Below are positions 42,292-52,371 of a DNA stretch of 64,000 nt, piece by piece (the first letter of the stretch is position 1; each line of letters begins with the position of its first letter). The stretch is from Desulfatiglandales bacterium (GTDB lineage: Bacteria > Desulfobacterota > DSM-4660 > Desulfatiglandales > Desulfatiglandaceae), in contig OY759599.1 of NCBI GenBank assembly GCA_963662465.1, positions 3,680,001 through 3,744,000 on the forward strand, in the 5' to 3' direction. A model generated the notes under the pieces. That model ran no database searches. It saw nothing but the letters and a program-made list of their open reading frames with translations, and was not told the DNA's origin. Made by a program: the position numbers and the translations under genes.

Positions 42292-43134
42292 ATGACTGAT
42301 CATGAAACATTTCTTCGGGATGCCGGAGAAAGCCTCAACGAAATCGTCAAACCCTATCAGGTAGAAATCAATCGACGGCAGCGAATGGCCGATTTTATCA
42401 AAACCTGCATGCGATGCACAGACAGAAATGACTTTCTTCAACTGGATGAACTGTTAAAAACCAAAATGGCCGGGGATATCCGGGAAGAAGCAGGTCTTAA
42501 TGAAAGCAGCGCCATTTTCCAAAACCTGAGCGAATACGCCAATGAGCAGGTGGATCGCTACCGAATTGAATTCATTGAAGATCTCACGGATCGGGCACGG
42601 GAAGCAAACCTTGAAATGACCATCGACTTTCCCCGATTCCATTCATTGAAGGGAATTGACGGCGAAATCGATTTTTCCAGTCGCGCCACCACCATCAACG
42701 GGAAACGCCTCAAATCCATTGACCCCAGGCGTATTGTGACAGCCCTGCTCCGTTTAAAAAAACAGCTCTATGACCGCCCCTATGACCCCCGGACCTTCAT
42801 TGACGGCCTGTTTGCCATCTACAATGAGATTCTGGACAAGGAAAAACTGCCCCCGGGCGCCAAGATCCCGGCCCAGCGTCTTTATCTGGATTATGTGATT
42901 TCCCTGCAAAATAAATCCTTTTTTCAGAACATGGACAAGGGCAAATTCCGGGGTTACAGCGGCGACCAGTTCAATGTGGACCTGTGGCGCTATTTTCAGG
43001 CGGGCATTGAAGGAACATCCAGCGGCCATGTGCTTAGAACGACGCCGGGAAGAATCAGCGCCCTGTGGCTCATTGACAGCGATGGCGAAAAACGCCGCAT
43101 CAGCGGCATATCATTCGAGGAGAAAGACGCCTGA
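42292..43134 (+). CDS. Hypothetical protein, first gene of the BrxD-like/helicase operon
   Basis: 280-aa ORF translationally coupled (TGATG) to the next ATPase; possible promoter TTGTCG-17 nt-TATGAG upstream. Confidence 0.8.
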   Translation: MTDHETFLRDAGESLNEIVKPYQVEINRRQRMADFIKTCMRCTDRNDFLQLDELLKTKMAGDIREEAGLNESSAIFQNLSEYANEQVDRYRIEFIEDLTDRAREANLEMTIDFPRFHSLKGIDGEIDFSSRATTINGKRLKSIDPRRIVTALLRLKKQLYDRPYDPRTFIDGLFAIYNEILDKEKLPPGAKIPAQRLYLDYVISLQNKSFFQNMDKGKFRGYSGDQFNVDLWRYFQAGIEGTSSGHVLRTTPGRISALWLIDSDGEKRRISGISFEEKDA

Positions 43135-49600: not shown

Positions 49601-52371
49601 ATCTGGAGACCGTCATCTCAAAAAATGCCCGAGAAGCAGGGTTTCAGCTCAAGCGCCATTGCGTGTACTGCCAATGGTTCAACTTCTGCTATCAAGAGGC
49701 CCTGAACCGGGAAGACCTCCAGTTTCTGCCAAATCTGAGCCCCGGACAACTGGATCAACTCAGAGCGCTGGATCTCAAATGCATGGATACGGCCAAGCAG
49801 TGGCTGGAGACCCCACAGGTCAATCCGACCTCCATGGCGCCCCGCACGCTCGAACAGCTGAAAGCCGGCATCAATGCCTTCTCAAACCATCACATTTTGT
49901 TTAAAAATAAGGTTACGCAACTTTTCCCAGCCAACATCTCAACATCCATAATTCTCTCTGCAATTCCCAAACCACTGCCGCATCACCCGACCCTGGGACT
50001 TTTCATTGCGGACGACAAAGGCAATGGCTCAACCGTTCACATTTGGAAAATGCAAACGGGCGGCAACAACGAAGAATCGGAATGGCATGATTTCGCAAAC
50101 ACCTTTTTTGCCATCTGGAAGCAATCGATGGAAAGCGGCAAAGGACCCCATGTGTTTTCCTTTGGCGGTAGAACCCCATCCCTGCTGCTCAAATGGGCAG
50201 GGGAGATGGGAAAACCGACACAATATGAATGGATCACGGACATGGTCCAAAACCATTGGACAGATCTCGCACGGGTTTTCAGAAACCATTTTACCCTCCC
50301 CATTCCCGGGGAACTCACCCTGCATTCCCTGCATCATGTTCTGGGGCTTACGCCTGCCCTCAAAAAGCCCCCCAGTCTATTTCACGGGGACCGGCACGAT
50401 ATGGATCCGAAAGAGACACTGCTTTTCTGCGACAACCTGCGAAAATGGCTCATGGCACGCCTCACCAGCAGCCGGCAACAGGAGGAATGGAAAACGGGGA
50501 AGGAACAAGAAGACCCATCCCAGACCTATATTCAGTTCGTGAAAGGGGAGCAGCGGTTAAGGCAGGAAGACATCCTGTCTCTCCGAGAATACTCCCTGAA
50601 AGAACGAGTGGATCGCTTTCGCGCCATGGGACCGCTTCGCTTTACGGGAAAAGAACTGGATCATGAAGGGAAATTCCGATACAACTTCGCCGCAACCCCT
50701 GATCACGGCAAATCCAAATTCCGGGAAGGGGATTTCTTAAAACTGGCGTCTCCGGGGATGCACGACCTTCAAAACGGGTTTTCCGTTATCCTGAACCGCT
50801 ATGCGCCAATGGATCAAACCCTGTCCATCGCCTCCCGACAGGGACACCTGGCCTTGAACCGAAGCATTGAATACTCCCTGGAAGAGGACGCGGAAGACTG
50901 GAACACTCCCAAACTGCTCCACGCGGTCAAAACCGTGCTGGGCAACAATGAGCATCCAGTTTCACGAATGTTGCAGCGTGATCCCACCGGCGCACAGCAT
51001 CAAAGTTCCTCCTCCTGGATACGGACATGGCTCGTACAAAACAGTGCCATCATCGGGCTTAATACCGCACAGAAGCAGGCCATGGAACTCCCTTTCTCCC
51101 AGAACTTAGGCCTCATCGACGGTCCTCCCGGAACCGGCAAAACCCATCTCCTGGGCTGGATGCTGATCGCGCTTATCCTTCACGCCCATGAATCGGGGAA
51201 ACCCCTGCGTATTGCGATCTCCGCCCTGACCCACCAGGCCATCGACAACGCCCTTATGAAGGTTTCGCGCTTGCTGAAACAATTCAAACTTCACGGCTTT
51301 CCCGCGAAATTGATTAAATGGGGCAGTCCCCATGAACCCGGGGAAAGAAACAATCCTTTCAGCGTTGAAACATCCAATGATCCCGAAGATATTTTCAGTT
51401 GCCGACATCTGATCCTCGGCGCTACCGGATACGGACTTTACCACCTTTGTGACAGCCGAAACGGCAATTTTCCACTGTATTTTGACTGGATGGCATTAGA
51501 TGAGGCATCTCAGATGCTGATTCCCCAGGCGGCACTGACACTGGCCTATGGAAAGGGGCATTATCTTCTTTTGGGAGATATCAAACAATTGCCTCCCATT
51601 GTTCTGGGCCATAATGAAAGGGAAGACACAGCACTCATTTCATCGAACCCAAATCCCCTGGAAGTTCAAAAATCCATTCTTGAGCATCTCTTAGGACATT
51701 ATGGCGCCGAACATCGTGTCCGTCTGAACGTCACCTACCGAATGAACCGCGAACTCTGTCAATTTCCAAGCCGCACCTGGTACGACGGCATCCTTCATCC
51801 CGCCCCCGAAAACGCCGGATTGCGACTTGCGTTGAAGGAGGAACTCTCCCACGACGAAATAGACCAACTGATCGACCCGGAGCGCCCCGCGGTCCTCGCG
51901 ATCCTAAATCACCACCATCACCACCAGGAATGCGAACCGGAAGCCGACATCATCTCCCGCATCGCCTTCCGAATGATCACCCATTTCGGCGTTTCACCAG
52001 AGCAGATCGCCCTGATCTCCCCCCATCGCGCCCAGAACAACCTGATCTCCGTCCGTCTTTCCGGACTGCTTGAGGGAACGAACTGCAAACTTCCTCTCAT
52101 TGATACGGTGGAGCGTGTTCAGGGGGCGGAACGGGACGTAATCATTTTCGGGTTCACCACATCGGACCGGGATCATGTGACATCCGCCTTCTTAAATAAT
52201 CCCAACCGCTTTAATGTGGTCATAACCAGAGCCAGGAAAAAGCTCATCGTAATCAGCGGCAATGCTTTTTTCTCCAGCATTCCAAATCGAGAAAAAAACC
52301 TTGATCGCAATGCCTGCTTCAAGGAATTCCATGAGTACTGCAATAAAAAGGGAAGCCTCTTTTTTCTTTGA
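46456..52371 (+). CDS. SF2 (Lhr/BrxHI-like) helicase + PD-(D/E)xK nuclease + SF1 (Upf1/Dna2-like) helicase fusion; true start probably near 46650-46670
   Basis: SF2: GTGSGKT, PTRAL, TTPESL, DEVH, SAT, TSTLELGID, QRIGR. Nuclease: QCERF...GIPDLI...EIKNS...QAAFYA...CVYCQWFNFC. SF1: GPPGTGKT, DEASQ, GDIKQLPP, YRMN, TVERVQGAERD, RFNVVITRAR. Confidence 0.9.
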   Translation: MGGIDPETPLASHGGLYMGPRKRPHSRGNGNGSGANPQPGNPRKDAIPGQPTGYGPPGTGAAPDIDPGHNILDSPLLKLPNTFRAFYGAFPSLFPFQVRAIEPILQGKDLILQSGTGSGKTEAVLAPCLERIFMSNGMDRLVYVVPTRALAFDLKRRFAPIITPRLGLGLGVRTGDIKRSGGRTPHIMITTPESLDVLLGSRNPELRKFASQVRMAVIDEVHPLVHQYRGRHLALVLKRLERRSGGPLQKIALSATIADMESIARFFDFSATASRISEDVRKEIVPHLVHLKNEAEELTALFDDLYRFFGYRKILLFANSRSACDRLFALLGQQGRFSGACGLHYSNLKPKQRRAVERNFRKNPHALCVATSTLELGIDVGDVDAVVLYEPPDSVSAFLQRIGRANRRVQKTFFWGICRGAKAGEQLTRFLGLLALAERGKVERPLPRKLRSVLGQQIVSCIYEKQRITPSAMKDLFPEESPALDEIFKTMEKTGWLTKGPVNGLFRGGWQYTNCLFEYGIWSNFPPAEEDYALELSQKTIADIPRAVVAQLEPGDRVNLAGKRLLITEIIHARSAGRVLAVPSARTDSKEIFWLGPGQQVSYEVAQSVREILKGSGVDEKGLFSRTRTLLQKERKKTQKAVILKNGIEVILSPNGFYRYLTYMGSVGNLILRWTLQHSLYTSGEEDVFVASDALGVDCSHWIDFSKLRLPLVKKDLITWTEQNFKLLKASFPLNRFCSTLPKELHMAEMADFLFDERVMNVFLHYRESSSEILSGNPGLLERGHSGGDTPDPVEIPARGEPLLEVEKNRVKFTPEISLDCATHTNRPLTGSILAGYFRHLQCERFLRLHFVPVHHQPPSPPPLDKEAADKRIHEGRQFEKTVMVHLQNNGATVVQIPEKDVNGNFRSMAVRHRETVDSLTKLLQIPLGENAAPHYLSQGVLLNPPLFQDVDGIGIPDLIRFSREKGTYLLTVGEIKNSQAPQFHHKWQAAFYAFLLKKMTASLKIHEPVVISNRGFLVLPAQKKSEKMVEHEFDLHPYLAAFPALIQNLETVISKNAREAGFQLKRHCVYCQWFNFCYQEALNREDLQFLPNLSPGQLDQLRALDLKCMDTAKQWLETPQVNPTSMAPRTLEQLKAGINAFSNHHILFKNKVTQLFPANISTSIILSAIPKPLPHHPTLGLFIADDKGNGSTVHIWKMQTGGNNEESEWHDFANTFFAIWKQSMESGKGPHVFSFGGRTPSLLLKWAGEMGKPTQYEWITDMVQNHWTDLARVFRNHFTLPIPGELTLHSLHHVLGLTPALKKPPSLFHGDRHDMDPKETLLFCDNLRKWLMARLTSSRQQEEWKTGKEQEDPSQTYIQFVKGEQRLRQEDILSLREYSLKERVDRFRAMGPLRFTGKELDHEGKFRYNFAATPDHGKSKFREGDFLKLASPGMHDLQNGFSVILNRYAPMDQTLSIASRQGHLALNRSIEYSLEEDAEDWNTPKLLHAVKTVLGNNEHPVSRMLQRDPTGAQHQSSSSWIRTWLVQNSAIIGLNTAQKQAMELPFSQNLGLIDGPPGTGKTHLLGWMLIALILHAHESGKPLRIAISALTHQAIDNALMKVSRLLKQFKLHGFPAKLIKWGSPHEPGERNNPFSVETSNDPEDIFSCRHLILGATGYGLYHLCDSRNGNFPLYFDWMALDEASQMLIPQAALTLAYGKGHYLLLGDIKQLPPIVLGHNEREDTALISSNPNPLEVQKSILEHLLGHYGAEHRVRLNVTYRMNRELCQFPSRTWYDGILHPAPENAGLRLALKEELSHDEIDQLIDPERPAVLAILNHHHHHQECEPEADIISRIAFRMITHFGVSPEQIALISPHRAQNNLISVRLSGLLEGTNCKLPLIDTVERVQGAERDVIIFGFTTSDRDHVTSAFLNNPNRFNVVITRARKKLIVISGNAFFSSIPNREKNLDRNACFKEFHEYCNKKGSLFFL

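Follow-up and report, generated by a model that had tools for sequence, protein, structure and literature searches.

The two described systems closest to the locus studied here are type 2 BREX (bacteriophage exclusion) and Shango. In type 2 BREX, BrxD is an ATPase of the ORC/Cdc6 clade that lacks DNA-binding domains and is the proposed loader of the helicase BrxHI (PMC12839542). Shango consists of a TerB protein (SngA), an ATPase (SngB) and a helicase (SngC), and protects against phage (PMC10250203; 10.1101/2022.05.11.491447). What the ATPase and the helicase do is unexplained in both systems. We analysed a locus in a 64,000-nucleotide stretch, here called the window, of the genome of a Desulfatiglandales bacterium (assembly GCA_963662465.1, contig OY759599.1, positions 3,680,001 to 3,744,000 of the forward strand). 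Four of its genes, A, B1, B2 and C (Table 1), encode a protein of no named family, two BrxD-type AAA+ ATPases and a 1900-residue fusion of two helicases and a nuclease. These genes form a real and unnamed module, which we tentatively read as a machine for accessory upkeep of the host's own DNA.

A sequence-only reading of the window had described four co-oriented genes, the first two coupled and the last two abutting. All four are open reading frames on the plus strand, the A/B1 junction is an overlapping TGATG, and B2 and C lie 17 bp apart. The gene count held only in part, since the region contains six genes and a GNAT/TacA pair between the two ATPases had been overlooked. The longest open reading frame for C opens at 46456; relatives align to it only from about residue 72, and the start is therefore likely to be the TTG at 46669.

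We then scanned genomes for relatives of A and kept the best 80 of 112 loci. These come mostly from Thermodesulfobacteriota, and also from Latescibacterota, Chlamydiota and SAR324. A was followed by B1 in all 73 loci with enough DNA, and the order A-B1-B2, whose conservation the earlier reading had proposed to check, was retained in 62 of 63 long-enough loci. The gap between B1 and B2 was at most 286 bp in all 72 relatives that have both genes. An Lhr-like match followed B2 in 48 of 57 loci (one of them a 79-residue fragment). Where at least 6.2 kb of sequence lay beyond B2 (45 loci), the Lhr part was present in 39, the superfamily 1 (SF1) part in 35 and a single fused reading frame in 31. Even in a distant subfamily of A, an ATPase came next in 4/4 loci and the ATPase pair was present in both long-enough ones.

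The same association was seen when whole genomes were considered. The phylum sample comprised 301 genomes. A had a match in 19 of them, and 18 were kept after one weak match with an internal stop was dropped (G069, E 6e-4). The tandem ATPase pair was found by reading in 16 of the 301, and A was present in 16/16, even when unlinked. In two families (f41 and f85) the ATPase pair is not next to A, each being embedded elsewhere among housekeeping genes, and in three genomes (G039, G144 and G205) A, the pair and the helicase each have a housekeeping site of their own. An Lhr-like ortholog was located elsewhere in 3 of 5 dispersed genomes examined, and in another genome (G338) C lies about 2 Mb from A-B1-B2. 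A full-length Dna2-like half of C occurred in 5 of the phylum genomes, exactly those with A of the window type. Given the conserved A-B1-B2 order, the variable linkage of the helicase and the restriction of the fusion to one subfamily, A, B1 and B2 are the constant core of the module, with the helicase as its usual client and the Dna2-like half as an addition of the window subfamily.

Several other arrangements were also seen. A distantly related second copy of the module is present in the host genome itself, where six genes form an operon (L001:8767-18128, at about 1.847-1.856 Mb of the genome) encoding an 804-residue TPR-SNF2 helicase, a 389-residue cysteine-rich protein, an A homolog (E 1.5e-34), two ATPases, the second of them with a Tudor domain, and an unfused Lhr-like helicase. 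This six-gene operon recurs in L161 and L162, and partly in L163. At L119:9454-15501, A and two ATPases are followed by an SNF2 helicase-Mrr nuclease fusion in place of Lhr. A-B1-B2 is also present, at 64% identity, on a 3.9-kb contig (L027) that bears an Asgard archaeon label, for which a binning error or a transfer may account.

The module resembles the BrxD-BrxHI dyad of type 2 BREX in that a PF10923 ATPase lies directly upstream of an Lhr-like superfamily 2 (SF2) helicase. In PADLOC, B1, B2 and C score best against BrxD and BrxHI, and the loader-helicase relation proposed for that pair (PMC12839542) is similar to the one that we consider below. It differs from the dyad by its two divergent ATPases, the extra gene A and the fusion of the helicase to a Dna2-like half. 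The BrxD model NF033438, whose cut-off is 350 bits, gave 152.7 bits with B1 and 68.2 bits with B2, both below the cut-off. In agreement with the earlier statement that pglZ, pglX and brxC are missing, PglW, PglX, PglY/BrxC and PglZ were found neither in the window's reading frames around the locus nor in the 299 of 421 neighbour clusters that were scanned (proteins shorter than 150 residues were excluded, and the flanks are mostly upstream). Homologs are thus not always linked to pglZ or pglX, and PglZ is absent from 2 of 5 module genomes examined. Elsewhere in the host genome, three BREX type 1-like loci (PglX, PglZ, BrxL) lie at about 0.78, 4.20 and 4.61 Mb.

Like the module, Shango is a stand-alone, methylase-free set of a partner protein, a PF10923 ATPase and an Lhr-like helicase. 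However, it has a single SngB where the module has two ATPases, and A gave no match to TerB, TerB_N or TerB_C in Pfam or PADLOC, whereas true SngA proteins do, so that the absence of a recognisable TerB domain noted earlier is upheld. An hhalign comparison of the C-terminal domain of A with TerB_C (only four TerB_C rows) returned a probability of 0.2%. TerB_N was also sought in 5 genomes without a match, but the control for this search matched nowhere either, and its result was set aside. With the SngB model, B1 scored 118 bits against 589 for true SngB. Four other genomes of the phylum sample have Shango and lack A, and B1-like ATPases of the Shango type are common on plasmids whereas A is not. 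Comparison with the PADLOC and NCBIfam models confirmed that the locus matches no defined BREX or Shango system, and that it is a stand-alone, methylase-free, conserved module as first read. The module appears to work like the ATPase-helicase arm of type 2 BREX and Shango, and is a member of neither. Anantharaman et al. reportedly described Ter-linked ATPase-helicase operons in 2012, and these may include related gene neighbourhoods. No published description of the A-B1-B2-C module was found in the literature searched, which included the available parts of 10.1101/2025.09.30.679545 and PMC5704561; the supplements of PMC12839542 may list stand-alone BrxD-BrxHI loci.

Both ATPases match PF10923 (E 2e-57 for B1 and 5e-19 for B2) and they are 25% identical to each other, confirming that the BrxD-type ATPase is doubled. 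The Walker A and B motifs, described earlier as intact, are invariant in 65/65 sequences of each, as part of a set comprising K71, D250, E251, R309 and R383 in B1 and K76, D253, E254 and R384 in B2. R309 is the arginine finger position of B1, while no invariant arginine was present in the finger segment of B2 among its 65 sequences. The finger motif is also present in the distant first ATPases and SngB proteins that were aligned, and absent from the aligned second ATPases. Between phyla, B1 sequences share 60% identity or more. In a quick tree, B1 and B2 branched apart from SngB and sequences from different phyla were interleaved; its branches are long and it includes no true BrxD sequence, and only the split from SngB was used.

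The N-terminus of B2 in the distant subfamilies provided a further clue. A profile built from 11 members matched only UvrD/PcrA chains (9/9 PDB matches, best E 4e-4), and 5 of the 11 weakly matched PF21196. This segment is a Tudor domain of the UvrD/PcrA type, which binds RNA polymerase and UvrB (PMC8318588).

Gene A has 405 representative homologs at E<=0.001, and none of Pfam, PADLOC and NCBIfam assigned it to a family. Its AlphaFold2 model (predicted local distance difference test score 95.7) contains N-terminal helices, a small beta domain and a C-terminal winged-helix-like domain. Fold searches with the whole protein returned nothing clear, a search of the ESM Atlas returned unnamed clusters only, and no longer fused form was found, which is weak evidence. 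The C-terminal domain (residues 143-280) was also considered separately. Its topology, a three-helix bundle with a beta wing, fits a winged helix, and the top rows of a VIA search were winged-helix domains, the first of these being chains from ORC/Cdc6 licensing complexes (best Z 6.1, root-mean-square deviation 3.8 over 80 aligned residues, below the tool's specificity threshold of 8). Foldseek gave no match to this domain at E<=0.001. A is a putative adaptor. One homolog of A, which carries HTH_17 at its N-terminus and is divergent from an actin-like gene, comes from a genome that lacks a PF10923 match (L117:7121-8206). In families f41 and f85 (L109-L111 and L113-L116), a solo A follows directly after the same two sugar-phosphate enzyme genes, hps/phi-like by their sequence, away from the ATPases.

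The earlier description of C as a helicase with its own nuclease and a second motor was borne out, and its catalytic residues are conserved. The protein joins an Lhr/BrxHI-like SF2 helicase, a PD-(D/E)xK nuclease and an Upf1/Dna2-like superfamily 1B (SF1B) helicase. The best solved relatives of the SF2 part are 5v9x and 7lhl, and its motif I lysine, DE motif and motif VI arginine are kept in all 35 full-length relatives. In the nuclease, four cysteines and the D/E position are conserved in 35/35, the catalytic lysine in 34/35 and the catalytic aspartate in 30/35; from the cysteines we predict that this domain carries an Fe-S cluster. The linker to the SF1B helicase had no Pfam match. Each of the six SF1B motif residues examined was conserved in 35/35, and the best PDB match of this helicase was mouse Dna2 (E 2e-23).

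Dna2 combines an Fe-S staple with a 5'-3' SF1B motor and acts with Sgs1 in resection (PMC4716839). Like Dna2, which works with Sgs1 or BLM, C carries its Upf1-like SF1B helicase C-terminal to a four-cysteine PD-(D/E)xK nuclease. The match in sequence is confined to the helicase part (residues 732-1137 of the 1171-residue query), and C, which is bacterial and accessory, has an Lhr-like partner 3'-5' motor within the same chain. Lhr itself translocates 3'-5' (PMC8301817). Similar combinations of a helicase with a RecB/Cas4-family nuclease occur in RecBCD (which is bipolar), AddAB, AdnAB and UvrD-Cas4 fusions (PMC5704561). These enzymes, however, use SF1A motors and several subunits, whereas C has SF2 and SF1B motors in one chain and is accompanied by AAA+ ATPases. 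C would be a one-chain bipolar helicase-nuclease of Dna2-like anatomy in bacteria. A role for C as a replacement of RecBCD/AddAB was considered and dropped, since genes for enzymes of each type are present in the genome. A split relative of the second half of C, made of separate genes for an exonuclease-WYL protein, a RecB-like nuclease with RNase_H_2 and an SF1B helicase, lies inside a cluster of restriction-like genes at about 5.60 Mb of the host genome (L003:8069-12731).

The strict co-occurrence of the genes, the intact nucleotide-binding sites, the one-sided arginine finger, the winged-helix-like A and the intact C are the basis on which we tentatively propose, at somewhat below even confidence, that A, B1, B2 and C are one nucleic-acid-processing machine, a heteromeric loader of the ORC/Cdc6 type that places a two-motor helicase-nuclease for accessory genome upkeep. 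B1 and B2 would assemble asymmetrically, as a heteromer of the ORC/Cdc6 type, with B1 firing the adjacent site and B2 acting as the cap. BrxD-type ATPases have no winged helix for binding DNA or a partner, and A would provide one in trans. Acting together, the three proteins may load or license C on abnormal DNA such as a stalled fork, an R-loop, a gap or an end. The Lhr-like motor of C would then unwind 3'-5' along one strand, while the Dna2-like half would thread the other strand, track 5'-3' and degrade it, so that C would be the equivalent of Sgs1 and Dna2 in one chain. Such a pathway would be accessory and horizontally exchanged but long-resident. In the subfamilies that carry the Tudor domain it is probably linked to transcription. 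The module is a methylase-free version of the BREX and Shango arm in which the fused nuclease offers a readout and a single ATPase has the finger, so that it makes the loader hypothesis directly testable.

The sequence-only reading had presented the locus as a defence system in which the ATPases and A load or activate C. The loader idea fits the anatomy of the proteins; the anti-phage part is not supported. On this possible alternative, to which we give appreciable weight, the module would be a methylase-free anti-phage system of the Shango or Hachiman kind, with A and the ATPase pair sensing phage DNA or damage and releasing C to destroy the DNA of the phage or of the cell itself. The best PADLOC matches (BrxD/BrxHI, then SngB/SngC) agree with such a role, as do the protection conferred by Shango (PMC10250203; 10.1101/2022.05.11.491447), the nuclease effector added in the window subfamily and a plausible defence neighbour at 12 of the 80 loci. 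However, the enrichment near defence genes that had been proposed as a check was flat. At a threshold of 1e-20, PADLOC matched 23/299 neighbour clusters and 9/117 control genes (117 of 148 called genes, mostly from the host genome; Fisher p=1.0), and plausible defence matches alone numbered 10/299 and 5/117 (p=0.77). A was present on 1 of 72,556 plasmids, compared with 694 for B1-like, largely Shango-type, ATPases, and no relative was found in viral contigs. The high identity of B1 between phyla, the dispersal of the parts among housekeeping genes in two families and the Tudor domain of distant B2 proteins also argue against an anti-phage role. Taken together, the flat neighbourhood, the near absence from plasmids, the housekeeping dispersal and the Tudor domain place upkeep ahead of anti-phage defence, and the two roles are not mutually exclusive. 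Several observations weigh against upkeep by the proposed machine. Both relatives of the ATPase-helicase pair that have been characterised, Shango and type 2 BREX, act against phage, and the module sits at a site with variable cargo, as defence genes do. It is patchy, the window type being found in 5/301 phylum genomes and 4/10 congeners (and in 2/100 genomes of a Chlamydiota sample, one of them the centre), and in the quick tree it crosses phyla. The helicase is absent beside B2 in 9/57 loci and was not found in 2 of the 5 dispersed genomes. The winged-helix match of A is weak (Z 6.1 against a threshold of 8, without a Foldseek match), the window-type B2 lacks the Tudor domain, the polarities of the C motors are borrowed from their families, and by motif reading RecB/RecD-like and AddAB-like genes are already present in the host. 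If the role is upkeep and not defence, housekeeping pathways can be mislabelled when they resemble PADLOC models.

A broader form of the upkeep reading, which we regard as doubtful, is that of a bacterial maintenance pathway like eukaryotic licensing and resection, in which the ATPase pair and a winged-helix adaptor would load a single-chain, bipolar Lhr-Dna2 helicase-nuclease on stalled forks or R-loops. It would represent the housekeeping side of the family that gave Shango and type 2 BREX their ATPase-helicase arm. A BREX system at another genomic site is very unlikely to use the module in trans as its BrxD/BrxHI arm. The host has four PglZ matches, and its only BrxD-like genes are the two ATPase pairs; but three of the four PglZ loci look like type 1 (PglX-PglZ-BrxL), the nearest is about 470 kb away, two genomes have the module and no PglZ match (G052 and G338), and the 299 neighbour clusters hold no PglZ, PglX, BrxC or PglW. 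Only slightly less improbable is that the cassette is decaying in this genome, a toxin-antitoxin insertion having severed B2-C from the operon. The insert does break the B1-B2 coupling seen in all relatives with both genes, and compared with locus L005 (about 90% DNA identity) B2 has lost 19 residues in frame and has a ratio of nonsynonymous to synonymous substitution rates (dN/dS) of 0.23, above the 0.034 of B1. All frames are nevertheless open and all catalytic residues retained, dN/dS against L005 stays below 0.3 (0.03-0.29 across the cassette genes; 0.16 for rlmKL), and a copy of the leader of A precedes B2. These dN/dS values also speak against residence in a defence island.

Table 1. Features of the module locus, in window coordinates
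Feature	Position	Strand	Remarks
Promoter-like leader element of A	42222-42247	+	sigma70-like hexamers with 17-bp spacing, identified by eye
Gene A	42292-43134	+	280-residue open reading frame
Gene B1	43134-44435	+	433-residue open reading frame
Lineage-specific insert	44436-45436	.	1001 bp, exactly from B1 stop to B2 start
GNAT acetyltransferase toxin	44454-44996	-	PF00583 E 6e-8
TacA1/DUF1778 antitoxin	44983-45270	-	PF08681 E 3e-21
Copy of the promoter-like element of A	45364-45389	+	at 3' end of insert
Gene B2	45437-46651	+	start most likely GTG 45437
Gene C	about 46669-52371	+	1900 residues if started at TTG 46669
C, Lhr-like SF2 helicase	46723-48741	+	PADLOC BrxHI E 3.5e-87, SngC E 1e-66
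C, Cas4/AddB/Dna2-type nuclease with four-cysteine staple	48943-49695	+	PF01930 E 4e-6, PF12705 E 3e-4
C, SF1B (Upf1-like) helicase	51058-52257	+	AAA_11/AAA_12
comM 3' fragment	52424-52660	-	PF01078; marks variable rlmKL-comM site

The insert encodes a DUF1778/TacA antitoxin followed by a GNAT toxin, which we take to be a TacT-type toxin in a TacAT-type pair. The pair itself is ordinary; its oddity is its position and the duplicated leader. The toxin has 11 further matches in the host genome. GC content is 0.42 in the insert against about 0.52 in the cassette, and no GNAT or TacA homologs were found in loci L001-L120. In L005 the B1 stop is joined directly to the B2 GTG, and contigs of two other sequencing runs skip the insert. 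One contig of a run that covers the whole stretch, and that may be the window's own source, matches positions 39500-52453 without differences, indicating that the insert is not an assembly error. A short repeat at its left end recurs at many sites in the genome. The two leader elements are identical at 21 of 26 positions and lie 70 bp before the start codon of A and 73 bp before that of B2, and the element of A is retained in L005. No third copy was found in the 8.16-Mb genome when up to 3 further mismatches were allowed, and 150 random AT-rich control windows reached at most 18/26 identity. A promoter scan returned 5 sites against 3.3 expected, the duplicated leader not being among them. The toxin-antitoxin pair was inserted between B1 and B2 in this lineage, and the leader copy probably keeps B2-C transcribed after the insertion. 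Metatranscriptome contigs of relatives (run X9) hold scattered cassette pieces, and show neither expression nor an operon transcript.

On the left side, the cassette adjoins rlmKL, as the sequence-only reading had it. Its right boundary of comM, helix-turn-helix (HTH) and IS3 insertion sequence (IS) relics stood for the comM 3' fragment; the other relics appear only as weak HTH fragments (HTH_17, E 0.08; HTH_Tnp_1, E 0.095). The comM fragment is 89% identical in DNA sequence to an intact comM elsewhere in the genome (about 7.48 Mb). In G306 no cassette follows rlmKL, and an intact comM lies about 1.3 kb past it. Four congeners carry other cargo in the rlmKL-comM interval, which within the genus (the window, L159 and L166) holds the cassette, small toxin-antitoxin-like genes, IS pieces or a reverse transcriptase. 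Synteny with rpsA-rlmKL is retained in L005, L010 and L065 at 77-92% DNA identity, a further point against a defence role. Five Latescibacterota loci (L014, L015, L033, L034 and L040) have an intact comM-like gene after the cassette, with constant housekeeping genes around it. To the right of the locus, an AT-rich stretch of the window encodes an AAA_14 and DUF4143 ATPase (58253-59623).

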